Virus record (IMG/VR): IMGVR_UViG_3300027710_000009
Strand: one strand, 5' to 3'
DNA length: 64,000 nt
Origin: a virus
Taxonomy: Duplodnaviria; Heunggongvirae; Uroviricota; Caudoviricetes
In this document: positions 1 through 57,421 of the stretch, piece after piece
How positions within the stretch are numbered: position 1 is the first letter of the stretch
Layout: each line of letters opens with the position of its first letter
Program-made: the position numbers and the translations under genes
Notes under the pieces: model-generated
The model's input: the letters and a program-made list of their open reading frames with translations, nothing else
Told to the model about the DNA's origin: nothing
The model's database searches: none

Positions 1-2461
1 GTTTGATCTGCAATGCACCGCTAGTAAAGTTAAATGATCTTGTACCACTTTGGATAACCAAGTTACCACTGGCTGCACCAAACGGTGTACCATAATATGG
101 GTTAGCAGCCAAAATAGCAGGAGTACCAACTTGACCTTTGGTATCACCGTTTGGTGCTCCACTCCAGGTACCGGATATATTGATATCGGTCTCGCCGTGT
201 GGTTGACCAATGAAAGTATCGCCAAATATGTTTATGCCACCTCTAGATGTAAGTGATCCATACACTGGATCACTGGATATCTTGGTTGGTACATATGGAG
301 TTAAAATACCAGTTGTTGGAGTACCAAGTGCAGCTTCTTTGTTGATAATATAAATGGTTCCTGAGTTATCAGTACCAACGTTCATATCACCACTTACACT
401 CATGCCCACAATAGCTGCCGTATTGCCCAGTACCACGCCGCCGGTTCTAATATCACCTACATCAACGTTTTGTGCATTGTCAATAAACAACCGACCACGT
501 GAACCTATGGTACTACCAGCACCAATGATCACGTTGCCTTCAAGAATTGATCCACCTGCTACTCTAAAAGCCGCAGTGTTTGTGCGGGCCAGTACATTAC
601 CGTCTGAAGCTGATGAGCTATAGTACATCATTGTTCCAGGTACATTTAGTGTACTAGAAACCACAACACCATTGGCAGAACTTGCATCAGCTAGATACAC
701 GTTACCAGCAATACCAGCACCGCCTTTAACTACCAATGCTCCGCTTGCGGTATTGCCACTCAATGATGATGATAGAACATATAATCCAGTTTGTGTAACA
801 CCACCGGTGCCTGGTGCTTGTTGCCCACCAATGTACAAGTTACCACGGATGGCAGCTCCACCACTGACTTGGAATGTACCTGATACTAAGTTGCTGGCAA
901 CAGTTGTGGCATTAGCAAGCAAGTTTCCACCAGCAATAATATTTTTAGCTGTGGCCAAACCGCCTGACAATGCAAACGCCGCAGTAGTCGTATTAGTTGC
1001 TTCAGTTGCTGATGTTAACGCAAATGATCCACCCACAGATAGATTTTCTGCAATACCAACACCACCAGCAACAACCAATGCTCCGGTTTCACTTGATGTA
1101 GATGTGGTAGTTGCATCAATGCTAAATGCTTTGTTGGTGTGCCAACGATCGCGAATGTTTGCAGATAGTGTAGCATCATCTGCAAAATAAAGAATATTTG
1201 CAAATACACCATCTACAATAATACCAGCTGAATTGCTTTGACTTGGAGCCGACGGATCTGCGCCTTGTGCTACTACAATATTTTTGTCGTCAACAGAAAG
1301 TATTGTTGAATTGATAATTGTTTGTACACCGTCAACCTGAACGTTGCCAAGGAACACAACGTTTTGATTTTGGTCAATGGTCATTGCAGGTGCAATGTTT
1401 CCGCCATCACGTTTGGTAGATATAACAATATTACCGCCAAGGCCATAACTGGTGTTCGACCCTGACGCATACATACCAATCAAGGCCATTTGTTGGTAAT
1501 TCTTGTTGCCTGAGCCGTCAGTTCTGTTTGTGTAAGCTAGAGAATTAAAATAGCCAATGTAATCTCCACTGTTAATAACAGTTTCGTTACTGCCATCCCA
1601 GCCAGCACCTGTATCAGTGGTACGACTCTTTGCAACTGAGAAACCAGCTGTTTTCATATCTAGTGGACTGTTACCACTATCAGCAAAGTTCATAAATGAC
1701 GTTATACCGCCACGCACACTGAATGTGTCTGTACCGCTCTTGGTTACTGTGTCAATTCTAGCACTAATTGGGAATAGGTTGCCCCAGCCGAGTCTCAGTG
1801 TTGGTGTGGCATATTCTCCAATGCCCGCCATGTAAAAATTAGGATCACGGAATACTGGATTACCTTTTGTTAGTTCACGAACAAACACAGTAGTCCCAGA
1901 GTCAACAGAACTAAATTCAAAAATATAGTCTCCTGGATCTGTAAATGTAACCAGTTTGCTACTGGCAATAACACGCAAGCCAGGCAAACTGGCAGTGTCG
2001 GTAGTCAGTGTACTTGGCAATTCCAGGGTATTGGTAACACTGGAAATGTTGATGTATAATAAAATTCTTGCATACTGCAATGCTGCTGGAAAGTTTTTAA
2101 TAACTGAGTTGATCTTGATAGCACCTGTAGCATTGATTTTATGAATGTTACCTAGGGCAAGATCAAGCTGGATTTCTGTTGCAGTGGCACCGCCAACTTC
2201 GCCCCAGTCATACACAGTTTCACTCTGGTTTTTAGTTTGAATGTTTTTTACCTGCGAACCCAAAAAGTTGTTGTCTAGCGAACTGCCTGACAGCGCACTC
2301 TTCAAAATTACTTTGGATTGCATGTCTTCAACTTCTTGTTTAATGAAGATGAAGTTGTTTTTGATGTTGGTAAAGTTATCGCGAAAGCCTTGACTGTCAT
2401 TGTCTTGCCCTGCGATAGGGTAATTACCATTAATATTAAACGGGTTTACTAAGCTGGCCAT
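1..2461 (-). CDS. Tail-fibre-like structural protein, N-terminal ~820 aa; gene runs past the left window edge
   Basis: Uninterrupted minus-strand reading frame from ATG at 2459-2461 (overlapping the TAA of the upstream gene) to position 1. It is absent from the ORF track only because no stop lies inside the window. Gly/Ala/Val-rich beta-helix-type repeats such as GALVVAGGVGIAENLSVGG and GALVVKGGAGIAGNVYLAD are typical of phage fibres. Confidence 0.55.
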   Translation of the reverse strand, partial: MASLVNPFNINGNYPIAGQDNDSQGFRDNFTNIKNNFIFIKQEVEDMQSKVILKSALSGSSLDNNFLGSQVKNIQTKNQSETVYDWGEVGGATATEIQLDLALGNIHKINATGAIKINSVIKNFPAALQYARILLYINISSVTNTLELPSTLTTDTASLPGLRVIASSKLVTFTDPGDYIFEFSSVDSGTTVFVRELTKGNPVFRDPNFYMAGIGEYATPTLRLGWGNLFPISARIDTVTKSGTDTFSVRGGITSFMNFADSGNSPLDMKTAGFSVAKSRTTDTGAGWDGSNETVINSGDYIGYFNSLAYTNRTDGSGNKNYQQMALIGMYASGSNTSYGLGGNIVISTKRDGGNIAPAMTIDQNQNVVFLGNVQVDGVQTIINSTILSVDDKNIVVAQGADPSAPSQSNSAGIIVDGVFANILYFADDATLSANIRDRWHTNKAFSIDATTTSTSSETGALVVAGGVGIAENLSVGGSFALTSATEATNTTTAAFALSGGLATAKNIIAGGNLLANATTVASNLVSGTFQVSGGAAIRGNLYIGGQQAPGTGGVTQTGLYVLSSSLSGNTASGALVVKGGAGIAGNVYLADASSANGVVVSSTLNVPGTMMYYSSSASDGNVLARTNTAAFRVAGGSILEGNVIIGAGSTIGSRGRLFIDNAQNVDVGDIRTGGVVLGNTAAIVGMSVSGDMNVGTDNSGTIYIINKEAALGTPTTGILTPYVPTKISSDPVYGSLTSRGGINIFGDTFIGQPHGETDINISGTWSGAPNGDTKGQVGTPAILAANPYYGTPFGAASGNLVIQSGTRSFNFTSGALQIK

Positions 2462-21123: not shown

Positions 21124-21345
21124 CTATTTAGTACGATATATGATCCTACCGCGGGACAAATCATACGGGCTCATTTCTAGTTCAACTGTGTCGCCCATGA
21201 GCACTTTGATATTATTTTGGCGTAATTTGCCGCCAAGATACGCAATTATTTTATGTTGGCTATTTTCGAGTGCCACTCGGAATGTAGCATTGGGCAGTAC
21301 TTCTTCTACCACACCAGTTACATTAACAAATCCTTCTTTAGCCAC
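21124..21345 (-). CDS. infA: Translation initiation factor IF-1
   Basis: MAKEGFVNVTGVVEEVLPNATFRVALENSQHKIIAYLGGKLRQNNIKVLMGDTVELEMSPYDLSRGRIIYR aligns along its full length with bacterial IF-1 (S1-like OB fold). Confidence 0.85.
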   Translation of the reverse strand: MAKEGFVNVTGVVEEVLPNATFRVALENSQHKIIAYLGGKLRQNNIKVLMGDTVELEMSPYDLSRGRIIYRTK

Positions 21346-25372: not shown

Positions 25373-25605
25373 TTCAGTATAAAAACCTCTGCGTCTCTTG
25401 CATCTTCAAAGTAAAACAAAAAACCTGCGGTAGGATTCCACTCTGGTCCACGCAACTGATATCTACCAAATCCTGCATACTCATTCACCCAATTGGTCAA
25501 GTCATGACAGTTAGGGCGTTGTTTCAGCATGCGTTCCCAAGGCATAAACACCTGTGTCCAGTGTGCAGGAAACGGCAAGCTGTCATCCTTGATCATGACG
25601 ATCAT
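25363..25605 (-). CDS. LKW-tail family small protein (member 6; ends FILKWL)
   Basis: C-terminus FLFYFEDARDAEVFILKWL. Confidence 0.55.
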   Translation of the reverse strand: MIVMIKDDSLPFPAHWTQVFMPWERMLKQRPNCHDLTNWVNEYAGFGRYQLRGPEWNPTAGFLFYFEDARDAEVFILKWL

Positions 25606-26041
25606 GCATGGTTACTCCATTCAAGTGATCCAGCTCATGCTGATAGCACACAGCGGCAAGTTCTTCTAGTTCTTCTTCATGCCAGTCACCGTGTATGTCT
25701 TGATATCTGGCCCAGATCTTTCTTGGACGATGTGTAAGTACATATTCATCGGGAAAACTTAAACAACCTTCCTGGCATTCAAACAGTTGATCTGTTGTGG
25801 CATCAGAAAATTCAGGATTGAAACAGGTCCTGGTCAATCCGTTAACACTCATCACAAACACTCTGCGGCTGATGCCTACCTGTGGTGCAGCCAAGCCAAT
25901 TGCATCACTGTCAGTCATAAACTGGTGCATCATGGTGGCCAAGCGCATGAGTGGCCGTGCATCCTCAAAGGTGACAGGCTTGGCAACATTTTTTAACACA
26001 CGATGTGTGAGTTTGAGTTTGTTAGGTATAATCATAGCCAT
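25583..26041 (-). CDS. def: Peptide deformylase
   Basis: All three PDF motifs are present: GLAAPQVG, EGCLSFP and HELDHLNG. Confidence 0.9.
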   Translation of the reverse strand: MAMIIPNKLKLTHRVLKNVAKPVTFEDARPLMRLATMMHQFMTDSDAIGLAAPQVGISRRVFVMSVNGLTRTCFNPEFSDATTDQLFECQEGCLSFPDEYVLTHRPRKIWARYQDIHGDWHEEELEELAAVCYQHELDHLNGVTMHDRHDQG

Positions 26042-37465: not shown

Positions 37466-37975
37466 TTAACTGTTAAGAACTTTAGCAACTGAATTCATAA
37501 CTGATGCAATGCGCCCAATGTCACGAAGTTGTTCCACTGTGTAGCCTTCTGAGTTCTTCAATGTGTCATAGTGTGCCTTAACACAGAAGTGACACTTGCC
37601 CACAATACTTGCGGCCAACGAGAATGCTTCAAAGTTTGCTTTGGTAGTTCCACCATGACTTGCAATAGCATTCATGCGTAACTGTGCTGGCAAACCTTTG
37701 AGTGCGGCATCATCTGCCATTTCAACATAGGGATACCATACGTTGTTCTGTGCCATGATGCTGGCGGCTGTCATTGCTGACTCTGCATGTACAGGAGCAT
37801 CTGCTAAAATTACTGACAGAATTTTGCCATTGCCTGTTGCGGCCAGTGCGGCTACGGCACATCCCATGGCCACATCTGCGTCTAGTGTGCTACGCAGTAA
37901 CACCGCATCTAGATTTAATTTTGTATCTTTGGCGTAGTCTGGTAACGCACCTTTTACTGATTCAATAAAATTCAT
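37466..37975 (-). CDS. AhpD-like / carboxymuconolactone decarboxylase-family protein
   Basis: CHFCVKAH matches the AhpD C-x-x-C-x-x-x-H active-site motif. ATG start at 37975 (MNFIESV); the longer track ORF starts at a TTG. Confidence 0.6.
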   Translation of the reverse strand: MNFIESVKGALPDYAKDTKLNLDAVLLRSTLDADVAMGCAVAALAATGNGKILSVILADAPVHAESAMTAASIMAQNNVWYPYVEMADDAALKGLPAQLRMNAIASHGGTTKANFEAFSLAASIVGKCHFCVKAHYDTLKNSEGYTVEQLRDIGRIASVMNSVAKVLNS

Positions 37976-37976
37976 T

Positions 37977-38189
37977 TTAATATTTTCCAGAAACAAAGTA
38001 TTTTTGCAACACTTCTAGTTTATCTTCATATTCCGCAATGTGCGCAATTTCAGTTTCCACAGCCGCCATCCAGTCAGTGTGATCATGAATGGCCATAGGG
38101 TTGTTCAACATGATCTCCACATTCATTTTGTGCTTGGTCAGTTGTGCTGAAAAGTTTGCTTCCAATGCACTAAGTAATTGTTGTTTCAT
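37977..38189 (-). CDS. Hypothetical protein
   Basis: ORF. Confidence 0.35.
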   Translation of the reverse strand: MKQQLLSALEANFSAQLTKHKMNVEIMLNNPMAIHDHTDWMAAVETEIAHIAEYEDKLEVLQKYFVSGKY

Positions 38190-38369
38190 CTATGCTCCTT
38201 GATAGAAGTTCAGTTCATCTTCTTCAGCAAGTTCTGGGGTGTTCCAAACATTACGATTGTTCCACTCGCGAATACGATCCAATCGTTCCTGTTCTGTCAT
38301 TTCATAACATCTAGGATTACGATCGGGCTGTCGCAATGTTTCAACACCTCGTTGAAATATTTCTAACAT
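38190..38369 (-). CDS. Small hypothetical protein (59 aa; not in the ORF track)
   Basis: Own translation begins MLEIFQRGVETLRQPDRNPRCYEMTEQERLDRIREW. TAATG coupling with ahpC. Coordinates approximate. Confidence 0.3.
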   Translation of the reverse strand: MLEIFQRGVETLRQPDRNPRCYEMTEQERLDRIREWNNRNVWNTPELAEEDELNFYQGA

Positions 38370-38908
38370 TAAAGTGTTTCACCGCCAACTGTACGGTTAC
38401 ATGCACACAGCTCGCCAGTTTGTAACGCATCAAGAACACGAAGTGTTTCTTCTGGGCTACGGCCTACGTTCAAGTTGTTGACTGTAACGTGTTGGATAAC
38501 GTTGTCTGGATCAACGATGAATGTTGCGCGAAGTGCGGCACCTGCTGGAGCATAGAAAACTCCTAATTGATCGATAAGACTCAACTCGCCACGTTGTGTG
38601 TCAGCGAACTGGTTGTGTGTGATTTTCTTCAAATCAGCATGAGCTGTTTGCCAGCTGACTTTACAGAACTCATTGTCTGTTGAACCTGTAAGCAGGACTG
38701 CATCACGGTCGGCAAAGTCACCTGTTAGTTTGTCGTAGGCTACAATTTCTGTAGGGCAAACGAATGTGAAGTCTTTTGGATAGTAAACAATTACCTTCCA
38801 CTTGCCGGGAAAGCTCTCATCTGTAATTTCGAAGAACGCATCTTCTGGCTGTCCAGGCTTGACACCCGTGACTGCGAATTTTTCTAACTTGTGTCCAACT
38901 GTTTTCAT
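38369..38908 (-). CDS. ahpC: Peroxiredoxin (AhpC/TSA family)
   Basis: Peroxidatic-Cys motif FTFVCPTEI, with a thioredoxin-fold alignment along the whole length. Confidence 0.85.
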   Translation of the reverse strand: MKTVGHKLEKFAVTGVKPGQPEDAFFEITDESFPGKWKVIVYYPKDFTFVCPTEIVAYDKLTGDFADRDAVLLTGSTDNEFCKVSWQTAHADLKKITHNQFADTQRGELSLIDQLGVFYAPAGAALRATFIVDPDNVIQHVTVNNLNVGRSPEETLRVLDALQTGELCACNRTVGGETL

Positions 38909-38986
38909 TTTGATTTCCTCTATAACAATGAATTAATGTGTATATTATACACGAACAAAAAAGCTCGTCAAGACTTTTTGGCACAA

Positions 38987-39544
38987 TTAAAATCGTACTG
39001 TGAAGCCTGTCATGACTCCGTCGTAATTAGCATCACCACGAACAGATTCATAGGCAAAGTTGATATCCAAGGTCTTGGACATGTGCAACACATAAACGGC
39101 ACGCCATCCACGTGTGTTGTCATTGTATTGGTCAGCATCAACTGCATTGCGATATCTCCAGCCTAATCTAGCAGTGCCAGGTCCAACGGCCATTCGCACA
39201 CCTGGTTCGGCACTGTAGTAGGCAAACTGATTGCCACCCACAGTTTTGATTCCTAGAGCAGTACGCACATAGGGTGTGATTACAGTGCCAGTGGGCAATA
39301 ACAAACTCGCACCACCTTCCAGTCGATTGATTGCAACTTTGGTAGCATCTGGAATCACAGTTTCAGCAATGGCATCAACAATAACGTTGTCCATGCGATG
39401 ACCCACAACAAACTGATATCCTGTGTCTGTTGCGCCAGTTGGACTTTTTCCAAACATGCTGTTGATGCCAGCAAAGGTCTGGGCTTGTGCAACTCCGGTG
39501 GTGATTGCTAGTAGTAGCAAAACATTTTTTAATTGATTAAACAT
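38987..39544 (-). CDS. Outer-membrane beta-barrel protein (OmpW/OmpA-like), paralogue 1
   Basis: Signal peptide MFNQLKNVLLLLAITTGVAQA, alternating amphipathic beta-strands, and a C-terminal aromatic ...GFTVRF. AGGAAAAC RBS. Confidence 0.6.
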   Translation of the reverse strand: MFNQLKNVLLLLAITTGVAQAQTFAGINSMFGKSPTGATDTGYQFVVGHRMDNVIVDAIAETVIPDATKVAINRLEGGASLLLPTGTVITPYVRTALGIKTVGGNQFAYYSAEPGVRMAVGPGTARLGWRYRNAVDADQYNDNTRGWRAVYVLHMSKTLDINFAYESVRGDANYDGVMTGFTVRF

Positions 39545-39600
39545 AAGTTTTCCTATAAGAACAGGGGCCAAGGCCCCTGTTGTGGTTGAATAGTTCTAGA

Positions 39601-40158
39601 TTAGAACTTGAAACCAACAGCGACGTTGGTAGCATTGTATGTGCTGTCACCGCGAACTTGATCGTAGCCTAGGCCAACAAAGTAGTTCTTGGTCAGTGCA
39701 TACTCAGCACCCAAACGGTATGTACGAGTGGTGTCTGCGTTTGCACTGTCTAGTGCGGCACGATAGCGATAGCCTGCTTTGACACTCAGTGCCGGAGTCA
39801 CCGCATACTTGATGCCTGGCTCCACTGAGTAGTAGGTATAGTTGGCCGAAGTCTTGAACTTCTCACCCACTGCACCACGACCATACACGCTGAACCCAGT
39901 GCCGCCAATTGGTTGCGTGGCTGTTAGGCCACCTTCCAGGCGTGTGTCGCTGAGATCGTTGTCAGTGTTGGTCTTTTGACGTAGACTGAAATCGGCCTTC
40001 AACAGTTGATTGATATCTGTGCCCATGGTTACCTTGGTGGCACGAGCATCTGCTGTACCATCAACGCCGTCACGACCACTGTATTCAACAGAGCCAAAAC
40101 CGCCTGCAAAGGCAGTGCTTGCGGCCAATAGTGCGGCCAATGCGATAAACTTCTTCAT
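39601..40158 (-). CDS. Outer-membrane beta-barrel protein, paralogue 2
   Basis: Signal peptide MKKFIALAALLAASTAFA and a C-terminal ...VGFKF. Same RBS type as paralogue 1. A GC-rich hairpin separates it from paralogue 1. Confidence 0.6.
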   Translation of the reverse strand: MKKFIALAALLAASTAFAGGFGSVEYSGRDGVDGTADARATKVTMGTDINQLLKADFSLRQKTNTDNDLSDTRLEGGLTATQPIGGTGFSVYGRGAVGEKFKTSANYTYYSVEPGIKYAVTPALSVKAGYRYRAALDSANADTTRTYRLGAEYALTKNYFVGLGYDQVRGDSTYNATNVAVGFKF

Positions 40159-40257
40159 TTGAAAATTTCCTTTTTGAAAATGTGCGCTGTTACGCAACAC
40201 ATGGATTATATATGCTGGTTACTACTGATGTCAAATAAAAAGGCACCAAAGCGACTG

Positions 40258-40977
40258 TCATGACCAGTATTTGCTGTTGTCCAAACTGTCCCAGTACTTC
40301 TTGTTGTTGCGGTTAACAAAGTTCTGGACCAAGTACTTGGCCATACCAAAATAGCCCATCTTCTTAAACCTACGGCTGTCTTGTCCAAAATAGTGATTGA
40401 GTATGCTAAACTTTTTTGGGCTGTAGCATCTAGATAGGAAGTAGTCTTCAGAAGTTGACATCTGCTCAGGAAAGCCGCCGTACTCTTCAAACCGGTCTCT
40501 GCGTGTGAGCATGAATGCGCCCACAGCAAATGGACTGAAATGTTTTAGAACGCGATTGATACCGTTGAACACAGCAAAGCCAATGCTGGCACGTTTGTCG
40601 TTGTCATAGCATTTGATGTTCAGCCCTAGTAGATCTAGGTTCTTAGATTCCAATTTGGCTACTGCATCACGAATCGTGTTGACATTGAAGAAGCGAACAT
40701 CAGCATCAATGAACAAGATGTAGGGTGTGGTAACCAAGGCAGCTCCGCGGTTCTTGGCCTGGCTGACTGGACCACCATCAATGATTTCAACATTCAATTT
40801 ACCCTTTAACTTTTGAATCACTTCTCGAGTGTTATCTGTAGAACAGTCTGCAATAATAATTCTAGTACTACCAATCAGTTGATTGCGTAGATGTAATAAC
40901 AAGTATCCAATGTAATTCTCCTCGTTCTTGCAAGGGATCACGATTGTAATTTTTTCACTTAGGATTGTTTCTTGCAT
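40258..40977 (-). CDS. Family-2 glycosyltransferase (GT-A fold)
   Basis: ITIVIPCKNEE in the N-terminal Rossmann region, followed by the FIDADV (DxD) motif. Confidence 0.7.
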   Translation of the reverse strand: MQETILSEKITIVIPCKNEENYIGYLLLHLRNQLIGSTRIIIADCSTDNTREVIQKLKGKLNVEIIDGGPVSQAKNRGAALVTTPYILFIDADVRFFNVNTIRDAVAKLESKNLDLLGLNIKCYDNDKRASIGFAVFNGINRVLKHFSPFAVGAFMLTRRDRFEEYGGFPEQMSTSEDYFLSRCYSPKKFSILNHYFGQDSRRFKKMGYFGMAKYLVQNFVNRNNKKYWDSLDNSKYWS

Positions 40978-42770: not shown

Positions 42771-43019
42771 TTACTCGTCCTTGGATTGTCGTTTTTTGAT
42801 CTTCATTCCTACAAAGGTTCCACAGAATGCTCCTATCATGGCAGGAATAAGCAGCCAATGATTTGTGGTATAACTGATAACTGCAACACTACCAAGTAGG
42901 TAACAGGCCACGCTCCAGAAACTGGCGCCCATCACATTATCTTTTGCAACACATCTTAGATAGTAGGTGTACACAACGTCAAGAAAAAATATAGAAAAAA
43001 ATGTTATTATGTAATTCAC
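42771..43019 (-). CDS. Hypothetical polytopic membrane protein
   Basis: Hydrophobic ORF with a GTG start. Confidence 0.35.
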   Translation of the reverse strand: MNYIITFFSIFFLDVVYTYYLRCVAKDNVMGASFWSVACYLLGSVAVISYTTNHWLLIPAMIGAFCGTFVGMKIKKRQSKDE

Positions 43020-43026
43020 AGAAGTA

Positions 43027-43052
43027 TTAGAAAAGAATGGGCCCGGAGGCCC
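43027..43052 (-). terminator. Intrinsic terminator of the tmRNA gene
   Basis: Minus-strand GGGCCUCCGGGCCC hairpin followed by AUUCUUUUCU. Confidence 0.6.
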
Positions 43053-43461
43053 ATGGTTGTTTATTTGACAGGGTAAGTCCTACCCCGCTGGTTTCGCTGT
43101 TTAGGCGAAAGCTGCCTCAGTGCGAGCAGACTTGGAACCGCCGAAACGGAAACCTTTGCCTACTGTTACTTTAACACCAGATTGTGTATTTGCTTTTGCA
43201 TTTACTTTTTTTGCGTCTACGGCCGAGTTCCCCCAACCCTACGGTTTCTGCCTTACCGTGCTGTCCACTTGCTTACTCTTTGCCCTGTCGAAACCATGAC
43301 TGGCCCATCATAAAAGGACTAGTGCAAACACTACCAGTACAACAACTACCCCTATCGCCAAACTACCCAGGTTGTCATTCATACCAATCTCCTTATGGTG
43401 GACCAGGCGGGAGTCGAACCCGCGTCCAGAACACTTTTCTATCCGCTTCATACAGCAATAA
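43027..43461 (-). ncRNA. ssrA: Circularly permuted (two-piece) tmRNA gene, organised as acceptor piece, then spacer, then coding piece
   Basis: The 3' end, ...UCUGGACGCGGGUUCGACUCCCGCCUGGUCCACCA at 43396, is nearly identical to the tmRNA 3' end GGACGCGGGUUCAACUCCCGCCAGCUCCACCA. An 89-nt spacer follows. Then GGGCCAGUCAUGGUUUCGACAGGG at 43306 matches the tmRNA 5' end GGGGCUGAUUCUGGAUUCGACGGG. The two form a 7-bp acceptor stem with a G3:U70 pair. Downstream, UAGAC-GCA introduces an open tag frame with no start codon, ending ...TEAAFA-UAA. The gene has its own promoter and terminator. Confidence 0.7.
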
Positions 43462-43466
43462 CTTAC

Positions 43467-43495
43467 AGTATATATTTATTCAGGGGAGTTGTCAA
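43467..43495 (-). promoter_or_regulatory. Sigma70 promoter of the tmRNA gene (TTGACA-N17-TATACT)
   Basis: Minus strand: TTGACAACTCCCCTGAATAAATATATACT. The predicted transcription start is about 65 nt upstream of the CCA end. Confidence 0.55.
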
Positions 43496-43690
43496 TGAGA
43501 TATTGTCTCAACCATTCCTGTGCTTGATCTTCTGTGTCAAAATAAGGACCAACCAACTTACCCCTAGAGTCTCTCCAAAAGTAAGTATCTGAATTTGTCC
43601 ATCTATCTCTGATGCATTCAAGTACCATATACAAAATTTTATCAGTGGCAGTAGTCGAACCTGCGCCTTATAACCTTTTCCTTTATATAG

Positions 43691-43894
43691 TCAATACTTA
43701 TCAGAGTTTACAGCATAACCTTGGGCAAATGCAACCACTGGATCTACCTTGCGCAACATCACAGCACCAGATGCAGTTTTGCACACTTGCAAAAAATCAC
43801 CTTCTTTGAATCGAATCTTCTCCAGCGGAAGTTCTTCGTCTAGAATAATGTACTGCCCATATTCAATGTCTATTGTGTAGTCGATGTGTTTCAT
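43691..43894 (-). CDS. Hypothetical small protein
   Basis: The internal ATG MKHIDYTIDIEYGQYII of a longer track ORF, which overlaps 43977-44312. Confidence 0.3.
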   Translation of the reverse strand: MKHIDYTIDIEYGQYIILDEELPLEKIRFKEGDFLQVCKTASGAVMLRKVDPVVAFAQGYAVNSDKY

Positions 43895-56185: not shown

Positions 56186-56776
56186 TTATCGCTTGTCTAG
56201 TACCCGATCTGCAAGCCCGTATGCCACGGCCTCTTGTGCGCTCATGAAGTTGTCACGTTCCATGTCTGCCAAAATTTCATCGTAAGTACGCCCCGCAGTG
56301 TTGTGATCCACGTAGATTTGCGTTAGATTGCGCTTCATTTTGAGGATTTCACGCACCTGGATTTCCATGTCTGTAGCTTGGCCACCAGCACCACCCGAAG
56401 GCTGATGAATCATGTGACGTGCATTGGGCAGTATAAGACGCTTGCCAGCGGCTCCTGCTTGAGCTAGCAAACTGCCCATGGAGCAGGCCTGCCCCATCAC
56501 AATAGTAGATATGTTAGGTCGAATAAACTGCATAGTGTCATAGATAGCCATGCCAGCAGTAACCACCCCACCAGGGCTGTTGATATAGAACAGAATATCT
56601 GCATCTGGATCTTCGCTTTCGAGAAACAATAGTTGAGCCACAATCAAACTAGCAGAATGCTCGTTGACATCTGTGTCTAGCATGACAATACGGTCTTTGA
56701 GCAGGCGACTGTAGAGATCATAACTGCGCTCGCCTGCTGATGTGCGTTCAAGCACCATGGGTACCAAATTTGGCAT
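56186..56776 (-). CDS. clpP: ATP-dependent Clp protease proteolytic subunit ClpP
   Basis: Full-length ClpP with the catalytic triad context GQACSMGS...HQP...D. A perfect sigma70 promoter lies upstream. Confidence 0.9.
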
Positions 56777-56813: not shown

Positions 56814-56842
56814 ATTATAGACAACTATAGACCAGCTGTCAA
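56814..56842 (-). promoter_or_regulatory. Consensus sigma70 promoter upstream of clpP (TTGACA-N17-TATAAT)
   Basis: Minus strand: TTGACAGCTGGTCTATAGTTGTCTATAAT. Confidence 0.55.
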
Positions 56843-57345
56843 CACCTCTGAAAATTTTGATGGCGAAACCAACGTTTTTGACCATGGGCAGTTTTCAAGT
56901 GAAGCCCCCAATAGGCAAAACGATCTCGCCAAGCAAAGAAGCTGGGACCATGTGCGCCTGAATTTTCGCAGATATTAAAACCCGTGTTATCAAACCGTTC
57001 TATGTCCCATTGATACTGGTGCACCATTTCGTGTGCCAGTGTGTTGCAGAACCACTGTGGGCAGAACCATTTGTCATAGAGTTCAATTTTACACCAGGTA
57101 CCGTTTTTGCCCCAACTGCTTCTGCGTTGACGATCATCTAACCAATGACACCTGCCCCAGCATTTTTGCAGTGTGGCCAACACAATTTCGGGTTGAGTAA
57201 GTTGATTGTCAAACACATGCCTATTGATGCATTTGTAAAGTGCTTCGGTTTCTTCAGGCAAGGGCCTGAAAGGAAGGCGTTTTTGTACACTCACACAAGG
57301 TAAGGGTGCTGTCATATACTGGGATATCAGGTTTGGTCGTGCCAT
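56839..57345 (-). CDS. SprT-like zinc metalloprotease
   Basis: LAHEMVHQYQW. The ATG at 57345 has a GGAGGG RBS; the longer track ORF starts at a TTG. Confidence 0.5.
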   Translation of the reverse strand: MARPNLISQYMTAPLPCVSVQKRLPFRPLPEETEALYKCINRHVFDNQLTQPEIVLATLQKCWGRCHWLDDRQRRSSWGKNGTWCKIELYDKWFCPQWFCNTLAHEMVHQYQWDIERFDNTGFNICENSGAHGPSFFAWRDRFAYWGLHLKTAHGQKRWFRHQNFQRC

Positions 57346-57421
57346 GAAAAAGCCCTCCGCTACGGTATTTACGTACCGCACGAAGGGCTTAAACAATAGC
57401 TTGATTAGTTAACTGGGCAGT

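Follow-up and report, generated by a model that had tools for sequence, protein, structure and literature searches.

The window analysed here, a 64,000-nt stretch of DNA from a virus of the class Caudoviricetes (IMG/VR record IMGVR_UViG_3300027710_000009), carries on its minus strand a permuted gene for a two-piece transfer-messenger RNA (tmRNA, gene ssrA). The reading favoured here, at a probability of roughly 0.7, is that the locus would be a functional phage ssrA of the betaproteobacterial-type permuted form, built as a compact early transcription unit with three products. Taken by itself, the claim that it is a genuine and functional two-piece tmRNA gene of the phage is very probable. Two of its features look undescribed: a family of long tags, and a membrane-peptide gene inside the excised spacer.

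Identity and layout of the locus

The ARAGORN call of a permuted tmRNA (Table 1) is joined by a match to the Rfam family RF04321 (tmRNA_permuted) of 97.3 bits against a gathering threshold of 47 (E = 1e-17), which spans the full model, 1-213. Both agree with the preliminary description of this DNA, made from its letters alone, which had taken the locus for a complete permuted ssrA. In a permissive Rfam scan, the sole other meaningful match is RF01850 (beta_tmRNA); the terminal hairpin of that model is placed within the tag, a placement that was rejected, the real terminator lying at 43054-43037. Weak matches to FuFi-1, twister-P3 and the L20 leader were judged to be noise.

On the minus strand the acceptor sequence is GGACGCGGGUUCGACUCCCGCCUGGUCCACCA, with its last base at 43396, and the coding piece opens with GGGCCAGUCAUGGUUUCGACAGGG at 43306, after a gap of 89 nt. 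The permuted order along one strand is CCA (43396), intervening segment, G1 (43306) and tag (43199-43101). The two acceptor strands pair as a 7-bp stem containing a G3:U70 pair, and the T arm, the discriminator A and the encoded CCA are all present, so the tRNA-Ala-like domain is complete. The tRNA-Ala-like 3′ end, the 89-nt distance and the 5′ end of the preliminary description are thus all present as stated.

Table 1. Features of the tmRNA locus and selected other genes (window positions unless a contig is named)
Feature	Position	Strand	Basis and remarks
Permuted tmRNA	43010-43488	-	ARAGORN; tag AKANTQSGVKVTVGKGFRFGGSKSARTEAAFA, then stop; only gene called in the whole 64-kb window
Relic acceptor piece AGUAUUGACUAUAUAAAG...GGCGCAGGUUCGACUACUGCCACUGAU	43636..43700	-	Alignment to L147; uncalled by ARAGORN and Rfam
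Small open reading frame MVLECIRDRWTNSDTYFWR...EWLRQYLIDNSPE, 50-52 aa	43476..43628	-	Between relic and live promoter
Sigma70-type promoter	43467..43495	-	Consensus scan, 11/12 match; TTGACA (43495-43490), 17-nt spacer, TATACT (43472-43467)
Acceptor piece	43396..43460	-	Sequence, Rfam, covariation; 5′ end inferred from promoter
P2b 5′ strand UGCUGU	43457-43452	-	Within acceptor piece
P2a 5′ strand UGUUCUG	43433-43427	-	Within acceptor piece
T arm GCGGG-UUCGACU-CCCGC	43423-43407	-	Sequence
Acceptor 3′ strand CUGGUCC	43406-43400	-	Sequence
ACCA (discriminator A and encoded CCA)	43399-43396	-	Sequence
Intervening segment, 89 nt, UAAGGAG...UUAUGAU	43307..43395	-	Sequence and relatives; absent from mature RNA
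Nested open reading frame MNDNLGSLAIGVVVVLVVFALVLL, 24 codons and stop	43308..43382	-	Shine-Dalgarno sequence; conservation in other viral permuted tmRNAs
Coding piece	43028..43306	-	Sequence, Rfam, covariation
Acceptor 5′ strand GGGCCAG, then UCAUGGUUUCGACAGGG	43306-43300	-	Sequence; D-loop analogue next in order
P2a 3′ strand	43287-43281	-	Covariation
P2b 3′ strand	43264-43259	-	Covariation
Two hairpins, PK1 region	43258-43221	-	Covariation
Tag frame AKANTQSGVKVTVGKGFRFGGSKSARTEAAFA, 32 codons	43101..43199	-	ARAGORN and relatives; resume GCA 43199-43197 after GUAAAU; UAA 43103-43101
Post-tag hairpin	43086-43070	-	Covariation; after helix 5, before terminator
Intrinsic terminator AUGGGCC-UCCG-GGCCCAU (43054-43037), then UUCUUUUCU	43028..43054	-	Consensus scan; GC hairpin and U-run
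IF-1	21124-21345		Context gene
Peptide deformylase	25583-26041		Context gene
ClpP	56186-56776		Context gene
CUA tRNAs	L009 6031-6106, L010 8105-8180, L014 1274-1348, L032 8869-8943		ARAGORN
CUA tRNAs	L051 5671-5746, L066 3847-3922, L074 10464-10539, L122 4585-4661		ARAGORN

Covariation in the two-piece fold

Relatives of the gene were gathered by pattern searches of IMG/VR and JGI metagenomes and are labelled L001, L008, L124 and so on. For the fold, 18 distinct members of the closest family were aligned with their intervening segments removed, and the structure tested comprises P2b, P2a, the T arm, the acceptor stem, two hairpins in the PK1 (first pseudoknot) region, helix 5, the post-tag hairpin and the terminator. 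This structure was derived from the window sequence, itself in the tested set, which gives it some bias in its favour. Among the 943 cells of the alignment 93.2% are paired, a share that drops to 38-47% once the 3′ strands are displaced by 1-3 columns; double changes affect 29 of the 54 pairs, and none of 500 shuffles matches any observed measure.

The strongest signals lie in the helices that join the two pieces. P2a has seven pairs, six of them double-changed (96.8% of cells paired), and P2b has six pairs, five of them double-changed (92.5%); these double changes provide support that is independent of the derivation bias. The T arm and the acceptor stem are both paired in 100% of cells, the latter with double changes in four of its seven pairs, and G3:U70 is kept in 18/18 relatives. 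At least seven forms of the acceptor stem occur (including GGGCCAG/CUGGUCC, GGGCCUG/CAGGUCC, GGGGGUG/CACCUCC and GGGGCAC/GUGCUCC), and across all of them G1-C72, G2-C71 and G3:U70 are constant. Covarying pairs in four helices (acceptor stem, T arm, P2a, P2b) back the fold of the window gene. Pairing is also high in the PK1-region hairpins (100% in the first, 98.9% in the second), in the post-tag hairpin (96.3%) and in helix 5 (88.9%, with one double change from U-A to G-C).

A PK1 pseudoknot, a post-tag pseudoknot and a helix closing the 5′ leader on the 3′ tail were judged by eye; the window is not clear on them and they are left unclaimed, while some relatives do support such extra pairings (e.g. 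AGGUAU/AUACCU in L147). In four long-tag relatives (L141, L144, L145 and L151) the T loop reads GGCGGUA, GGCAGUG or GGCAGAG in place of the near-universal UUCGAnU, and the D-loop analogue changes to match (AUAGUAUCGA, ACAGGAUCGA).

The long tag

The tag frame of the window belongs to a set of 20 distinct homologous tags of 31-34 aa, all of which follow the resume context (G/C)UAAAU-GCA and share the consensus A(K/N/T)(A/T)(S/N)T..G.VKV(T/K)..(K/R)GFRFGG(S/A/T)......(A/E)FA. Every insertion or deletion among them is a whole number of codons, serine is encoded by both UCN and AGC codons, and the proportion of synonymous differences (pS) exceeds that of nonsynonymous differences (pN) in 175/190 pairs (means 0.40 and 0.26, with the ascertained core excluded). 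These three properties indicate that the frame is real. The loop of helix 5 (UUUCGC 43110-43105 / GCGAAA 43097-43092) contains the stop codon, as in other tmRNAs. As read from these comparisons, the tag is 32 encoded residues plus the charged alanine, 33 in all.

The preliminary description had set the resume point at UAGAC-GCA. That site lies upstream of a 1-nt indel in an A-run relative to L124, which breaks the frame, and before GUAAAU the two translations bear no relation to each other (GWGNSAVDAKK in the window, GLGKLGRRRKK in L124), while downstream they are identical; the site is therefore untenable, and the true UAAAU-GCA lies five codons downstream. What survives of the earlier account is a tag of unusual length in a conserved frame, with the resume codon moved and the length set at 32 codons.

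Within the tag, UUCCGUUUCGGCGG (codons F-R-F-G-G; 43150-43137, minus strand) is invariant even at synonymous sites in all relatives, whereas neighbouring Gly codons vary, and it is also invariant in matches retrieved with a pattern that does not contain it. This invariance at synonymous sites means that part of the conservation of the tag could be RNA constraint. The same segment is similar to the helix-5 strand GCUUUCGCC and could pair alternatively with GCGAAAC.

ClpX reads the C-terminal LAA of canonical ssrA tags, and SspB the N-terminal AANDE. The window tag starts with AKAN and ends with AAFA, so that both canonical degron signals are missing, and searches with it gave no match in PDB or Pfam; a literature search found nothing relevant on 'FRFGG' with tmRNA. 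The missing LAA favours, tentatively, a re-routed degron that might be read by a protease other than host SspB/ClpXP, either a different or a phage-controlled one. The only precedent is the long Mesoplasma tag, whose end NYAFA is a Lon degron; Lon has there taken over from ClpXP (PMC9382460). The ClpP encoded by the phage hints at a reader of the tag but is unconnected to it. If the reading holds, the long tag may yield a new orthogonal degron.

The tmRNA might also work with a tag that is no degradation signal, but a peptide module that relocalises, aggregates or marks stalled chains, or a 'runway' for normal termination. The modal tag length is 10 aa (PMC11915505), and the tag here is three times as long, is net basic, carries a conserved core, VKV(T/K)x2-3(K/R)GFRFGG, unlike known degrons, ends in AFA or EFA rather than LAA, and is conserved along the whole peptide instead of in its last residues alone. 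Such a role is nevertheless unlikely: the AAFA end is hydrophobic and Ala-rich, like a degron and like the Lon-read tag of Mesoplasma, the window phage carries ClpP, and the present analysis gave no sign of a non-proteolytic activity of the tag.

The intervening segment and its nested reading frame

The intervening segment ranges from 25 to 226 nt among relatives and its content varies freely, as expected of an excised spacer. In the window it is predicted to fold into an imperfect hairpin stacked on the acceptor stem (z = -1.5, not significant). It is nearly filled by an open reading frame (ORF) of 24 codons, whose Shine-Dalgarno (SD) sequence AAGGAG (43394-43389) starts 2 nt past the CCA, with the AUG 6 nt further on, and whose UGA stop ends 1 nt before G1.

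This ORF is missing from L024 and L124, the closest long-tag relatives, and was for that reason first taken for a chance occurrence. A survey of 100 distinct permuted tmRNA genes in the fetched loci overturned the chance reading. Homologues of the hydrophobic nested peptide are found in the intervening segments of L008, L059/L081, L077, L163, L012/L107, L021 and L013, the tags of which are quite different. Comparisons among the window, L008 and L059 show changes in most codons, nearly all of them synonymous (pS 0.66-0.88, pN 0.04-0.12), and dN/dS is 0.02-0.08 by the NG86 method; judged by this substitution pattern, the nested ORF is under strong purifying selection. Its product is probably a membrane micropeptide with a single helix.

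The arrangement is also found more widely. ORFs that cover at least 70% of the spacer and end at its last bases occur in 22/77 spacers of at least 60 nt, against 6.3 ± 2.3 (maximum 13 in 300) when spacer interiors are shuffled, and an SD-like start accompanies 16/22 of these ORF-filled spacers but only 4/55 of the others. Longer spacers hold unrelated ORFs of 25, 32, 35, 49, 55, 56, 61 and 65 codons. Spacers without an ORF begin with (G/A/U)AAG, end with CUUCUGAU and form a plain hairpin; since their termini are alike, the spacer ORFs seem to reuse signals that were already in place.

In L147 (2126-2350, plus strand), and also in L161, the spacer ORF, a homologue of the small ORF that lies upstream of the window gene at 43476-43628, has no in-frame stop before the RNase P site. 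It runs into the coding piece, so that the processed mRNA would be non-stop.

Spacer contents differ from phage to phage, and for this reason the nested gene is more readily seen as cargo that occupies a dispensable, well-expressed slot than as a direct participant in trans-translation. The opposite view couples the nested ORF to the tmRNA: ribosomes on the spacer would govern how the precursor folds or is processed, or the peptide's mRNA, cut by RNase P 1 nt past its stop codon, would feed trans-translation. It draws on a layout kept in 16 or more unrelated spacer ORFs, with the SD sequence right past the CCA and a stop codon that ends 1 nt short of the RNase P cut, and on the non-stop RNA expected in L147. 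Such coupling is improbable, however: the spacer ORFs are mutually unrelated (membrane peptides in some, soluble proteins of 25-65 aa in others) and many relatives have none, which fits interchangeable cargo, and the UGAU before G1 and the UAAG after the CCA also occur in spacers without an ORF.

In protein databases the nested peptide appears solely as the C-terminal part of a spurious 47-aa ORF, placed by gene callers across the tRNA-like domain, with further variants there. The 24-aa peptide gave no match by tblastn against phage genomes or in PDB and Pfam searches, and the literature searched contains no description of protein genes within tmRNA intervening sequences. Selected protein genes inside the spacer of an RNA gene thus escape standard annotation, the spurious ORF being called instead.

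Transcription signals

The preliminary description had credited the gene with its own sigma70 promoter and with a terminator made of a GC hairpin and a U-run, and both are in place (Table 1). A promoter of the form TTGACA-17-TATA(C/A/T)(A/C)T occupies the equivalent position in the relatives L024, L150, L158, L136 and L151; other relatives have no promoter at the equivalent site, and there the tmRNA lies directly behind an ORF. A GC hairpin with a U-run is found at the terminator position in 18/18 aligned relatives, with many double changes, although the alignment of this helix is imperfect.

Distribution and relatives

The exact 32-nt 3′ end of the window gene occurs in at least 120 IMG/VR contigs. 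Of the 80 contigs fetched, about 70 have a permuted tmRNA by ARAGORN, nearly all with host-like tags (e.g. ANDERFALAA, ANAANDEVFALAA); most related phages carry the tag ANDExFALAA. Among 185,579 bacterial and archaeal species genomes (one per species) the exact 32-mer is present in only two contigs of metagenome-assembled genomes (MAGs). One of these, L163 (CAZCDW010000126.1, labelled as an uncultured Bifidobacterium MAG), has the same viral tmRNA 3′ end, a nested 23-aa peptide and homologues of two window genes; this peptide and these homologues make a phage contig, wrongly binned with a bacterial genome, the most likely explanation. Identification of the host through the 32-mer accordingly failed, with two MAG contigs only, at least one of them mis-binned phage. 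The canonical tags of related phages presumably resemble those of Betaproteobacteria, and this resemblance and the rank of RF01850 as the best model are the only hints as to the host.

This distribution bears on the possibility that the locus is a remnant of a host ssrA left by imprecise excision, or an attP core, that is, a fragment of an integration site. tmRNA genes are common integration sites, and several of the IMG/VR matches to the 32-mer lie at contig ends. However, both halves of the gene, P2, the tag and the terminator are present and covary, as the preliminary description had anticipated in denying that the locus was an attP remnant; a 3′ fragment derived from a host, which it had named as a possible refutation, is contradicted by a 32-mer nearly confined to viral contigs (at least 120, against the two MAG contigs); and the gene keeps a fixed place in a conserved neighbourhood running from rIIA and rIIB to the tmRNA. 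The remnant reading therefore has next to no likelihood, though no search aimed at an integrase, the usual neighbour of such a fragment, was made.

The long-tag family comprises about 22 sequences, all on viral or metagenomic contigs. Its members share with the window a neighbourhood of rIIA, rIIB, an ATPase, three small ORFs, the tmRNA, an 82-aa membrane protein, a BPL_N-like protein and a metallophosphoesterase; the closest relative, L150, has 85-96% protein identity. Many canonical-tag loci have in common AhpC, OMP (outer-membrane protein)-like, glycosyltransferase and phosphoesterase genes. These contexts point to one broad phage group in which a sub-group appears to have swapped a host-like tag (10-13 aa) for a long one (31-34 aa). 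Such a swap within one group is a natural experiment that could show what use phages make of trans-translation.

At the DNA level, megablast of 24 kb around the locus against 50,697 phage genomes gave no match. In a sensitive blastn of the locus the alignments were confined to the tRNA-like domain, in tmRNAs of Stenotrophomonas, Xanthomonas and Bacillus G phages, and beyond that domain there is no DNA match to any INPHARED phage.

SmpB and the question of a decoy

The preliminary description took a complete gene to imply that the phage would supply its own trans-translation RNA. The RNA gene is indeed complete, but tblastn of the 64-kb window, with ad hoc query sequences, found no SmpB, nor any ClpX or SspB. 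In three long-tag loci smpB adjoins the tmRNA on its upstream side (L139 1700-2101, plus strand; L138 2167-1766; L157 4948-4547), with 40% identity to E. coli SmpB; the tRNA-like domain of these tmRNAs is unusually divergent (T arm GGAGUUCGAAUCUCC, D-loop region CCGGAAUCGCC). The presence of smpB beside a long-tag tmRNA in one member of the family argues for use in trans-translation.

A phage tmRNA might instead sequester SmpB, AlaRS or EF-Tu and so cripple trans-translation in the host, acting as a decoy, as proposed for the RNA of mycobacteriophage DS6A, which consists of a tRNA-like domain (TLD) only. Phage TLD-only molecules inhibit tmRNA (PMC4131195), the tblastn search found no smpB in the window, and T loops are non-canonical in some relatives. 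The window gene, however, has a complete coding piece with a conserved resume context, its stop codon lies in helix 5 as in working tmRNAs, and its tag frame is held open (in-frame indels, synonymous excess), which a pure decoy would not need. A decoy is thus highly improbable here.

Traces of rearrangement

Different parts of the window gene resemble different relatives. The spacer is 73-78% identical in nucleotides to those of the canonical-tag genes L008 and L012, while the PK1 region, tag and tail are 82-95% identical to L124, L150 and L158, whose spacers are unrelated; similarities that point to different relatives indicate that tmRNA modules reassort.

A relic of a second acceptor piece lies about 180 nt ahead of the live one, flanked by ORFs of 141 aa and 50 aa. 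It has 53/62 aligned bases identical to the acceptor piece of L147, with a score of 65.5 against 31 ± 4.3 in 1000 shuffles (maximum 49.5), and it shows two deletions of about 6 nt, a broken T stem, and neither an acceptor 3′ strand nor CCA. The small ORF between the relic and the live promoter has 77% amino acid identity to the L147 ORF that lies inside the tmRNA spacer. The simplest history would be that an ancestor had the 50-aa ORF nested in its tmRNA gene, that a new cassette of promoter, acceptor piece and spacer was set downstream, and that the old acceptor piece then decayed. This history recalls the duplication-and-loss model of how permuted genes arose (PMC3978253). Spacer cassettes, tag modules and the relic acceptor together would show permuted RNA genes being rebuilt through duplication and loss.

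Proposed mechanism

Expression of the gene can be pictured as follows. Host RNA polymerase would initiate at the sigma70-type promoter, and the transcript would fold by pairing of the upstream 3′ acceptor strand with the downstream 5′ strand, a pairing shown by covariation. Judging from the two-piece tmRNA of Caulobacter, host RNase P would cleave before G1 (43306) and 3′ trimming would halt at the encoded CCA (43396). The 89-nt spacer would be released, while the two RNAs would stay joined via the acceptor stem and P2a/P2b.

AlaRS could then recognise the invariant G3:U70 and charge the RNA. Together with SmpB, which is presumably supplied by the host since none was found in the window, the RNA would enter ribosomes stalled on broken mRNAs during infection; translation would resume at GCA 43199, and alanine plus 32 residues ending in AAFA would be added. 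Tagged proteins might go to a Lon-like protease, to FtsH, or to phage ClpP with a partner, which is the least certain step. The spacer might double as a small mRNA, its 24-residue peptide being translated from the precursor or from the released spacer before decay.

Several observations weigh against the favoured reading as a whole. The likeness to bacterial permuted tmRNAs drawn in the preliminary description holds in so far as RF01850 is the best clade-specific Rfam model (E = 1.3e-20), but its 69.4 bits lie below the gathering threshold of 84. Of the joint fold of the two pieces envisaged there, the P2 pairing is found, and the PK1 region yields only two supported hairpins. The SD sequence of the nested ORF is predicted to be base-paired within the precursor hairpin, and four tag codons (UUC CGU UUC GGC) show no synonymous change. 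Finally, the long-tag pattern (TTCCGTTTCGGCGGT, 21-39 nt, TTCGCYTAA), which matches 23 metagenome contigs and about 12 IMG/VR contigs, gave 0 matches in the 185,579 species genomes, but in an exact search that diverged bacterial homologues would escape.

A bolder extension of the favoured reading would make the locus a three-product 'translation-takeover' cassette confined to phages. In it, an orthogonal 33-residue tag would be read by a phage-controlled protease (its own ClpP with a partner, or host Lon or FtsH), and the membrane micropeptide, a by-product of the tmRNA precursor, would act together with it; the spacers of permuted tmRNAs in general would be an expression slot or cradle for small phage genes, with bounds set by tRNA-processing sites. 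This extension is speculative and, taken as a whole, doubtful.

Comparison with known systems

Two-piece tmRNAs of phages are documented. Buchholz et al. (2022) described one in the OM43 phage Melnitz and counted 53 two-piece calls among phage genomes, and their Table S1 lists phiCbK-like, Synechococcus, Pelagibacter and Stenotrophomonas phages with a two-piece tmRNA (PMC9004378). Al-Shayeb et al. (2020) reported tmRNA and SmpB in huge phages (PMC7162821), a 2025 tmRNA database contains 79 phage sequences (PMC11915505), and GenBank records of Menderavirus annotate the gene, that of Marzo being of the same lineage as the window's. Given these publications and the abundance of such genes in IMG/VR, the window gene is of a known kind, and the rarity implied by the preliminary description does not hold (PMC9004378, PMC7162821). 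A two-piece tmRNA in a phage is no longer news in itself, and the window adds one more uncultured phage of freshwater type.

Like the published set (Melnitz, Pelagibacter HTVC008M and Mosig, Caulobacter phiCbK-like phages, Synechococcus myophages and the Stenotrophomonas Menderavirus phages Mendera, Moby and Marzo), the window has a permuted ssrA among the early genes of a large lytic-type phage, with the ARAGORN type tmRNA*. Marzo in particular has the P2b motif UUGUAUGAAG in common with it, together with a UGAU leader ahead of G1 and the overall arrangement. The published phages have short, host-like tags, (V)AANDDSYTVRIAA in Marzo, whereas the window has the long tag; the Marzo spacer is a plain 57-nt hairpin, whereas that of the window holds an ORF; and Melnitz has a glutamine riboswitch, whereas Rfam found none in the window.

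The helix order and the resume context UAAAUGC agree with beta_tmRNA (RF01850), the consensus acceptor of which, GGGGGUG/CACCUCC, is used by L147, L150 and L154. Apart from the sub-threshold score, the window differs in having a tag of 32 codons instead of about 10, and none of the genuine bacterial genomes among the 185,579 species representatives contains its exact tRNA-like 3′ end.

Mollicute tags (Mesoplasma, Mycoplasma) are likewise far longer than the usual 10-11 residues and end in ...AFA rather than ...LAA (PMC9382460). The window tag has no similarity to them past the last three residues, and the window phage, presumably with a Gram-negative host, encodes ClpP.

Cargo in interrupted ssrA genes is known in the form of homing-endonuclease ORFs in group I introns and of a tRNA-Ala gene or repeat element in permuted intervening segments (PMC11915505). 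In those cases too, a dispensable, excised segment of ssrA hosts another element; the cargo of the window type, however, consists of small, SD-led protein genes bounded exactly by the CCA and the RNase P site, one of them under strong purifying selection. The tmRNAs of mycobacteriophages, one-piece in the Bxz1 group and reduced to the TLD in DS6A (PMC4131195), are phage-borne like that of the window, but are not two-piece and come from actinobacteriophages.

Genomic context and further observations

The tmRNA lies among phage genes of the same strand that encode rIIA, rIIB, a phage ATPase and virion structural and tail-fibre-like proteins. The phage had been called T4-like in the preliminary description, which is borne out only as far as the rIIA/rIIB, DNA ligase and tail-fibre-like genes go; the peptide deformylase, IF-1 and ClpP genes mentioned there were all found.

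An 82-aa predicted multi-pass membrane protein (42771-43019, minus strand) begins right past the tmRNA terminator. Its homologues occur in 13 fetched loci, all beside long-tag tmRNAs and none beside canonical-tag ones; the protein is missing from the long-tag L147 and L161, so the link may be phylogenetic. Downstream of the tmRNA, at 37466-40977 (minus strand), the window encodes a set of host-like auxiliary proteins: a CMD/AhpD-like protein, an AhpC/TSA peroxiredoxin, two OMP beta-barrels with signal peptides and a family-2 glycosyltransferase. For AhpC, identity reaches 89% with versions encoded on numerous related phage contigs.

L048 encodes a full-length homologue of ClpX (199-1374, minus strand; 47% identity to the E. 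coli protein) about 6 kb from a canonical-tag tmRNA whose tag, miscalled by ARAGORN, is actually ANAANDEVFALAA. Two further calls of a 'standard tmRNA' (in L001 and L171) overlap tRNAs and were rejected, as was L142, a chance pattern match.

A tRNA with the anticodon CUA, labelled tRNA-Pyl by ARAGORN, is found a few kb or less from the tmRNA on several related phage contigs (Table 1); these tRNAs are possible amber suppressors. The phage ClpP gene is immediately preceded, both in the window and in L165-L168, by a gene for a SprT-like metalloprotease (56839-57396 in the window, minus strand), and an identical ClpP protein is encoded on 12 JGI/ENA/Logan contigs, the longest of which is in the 0.2-1 Mb class.

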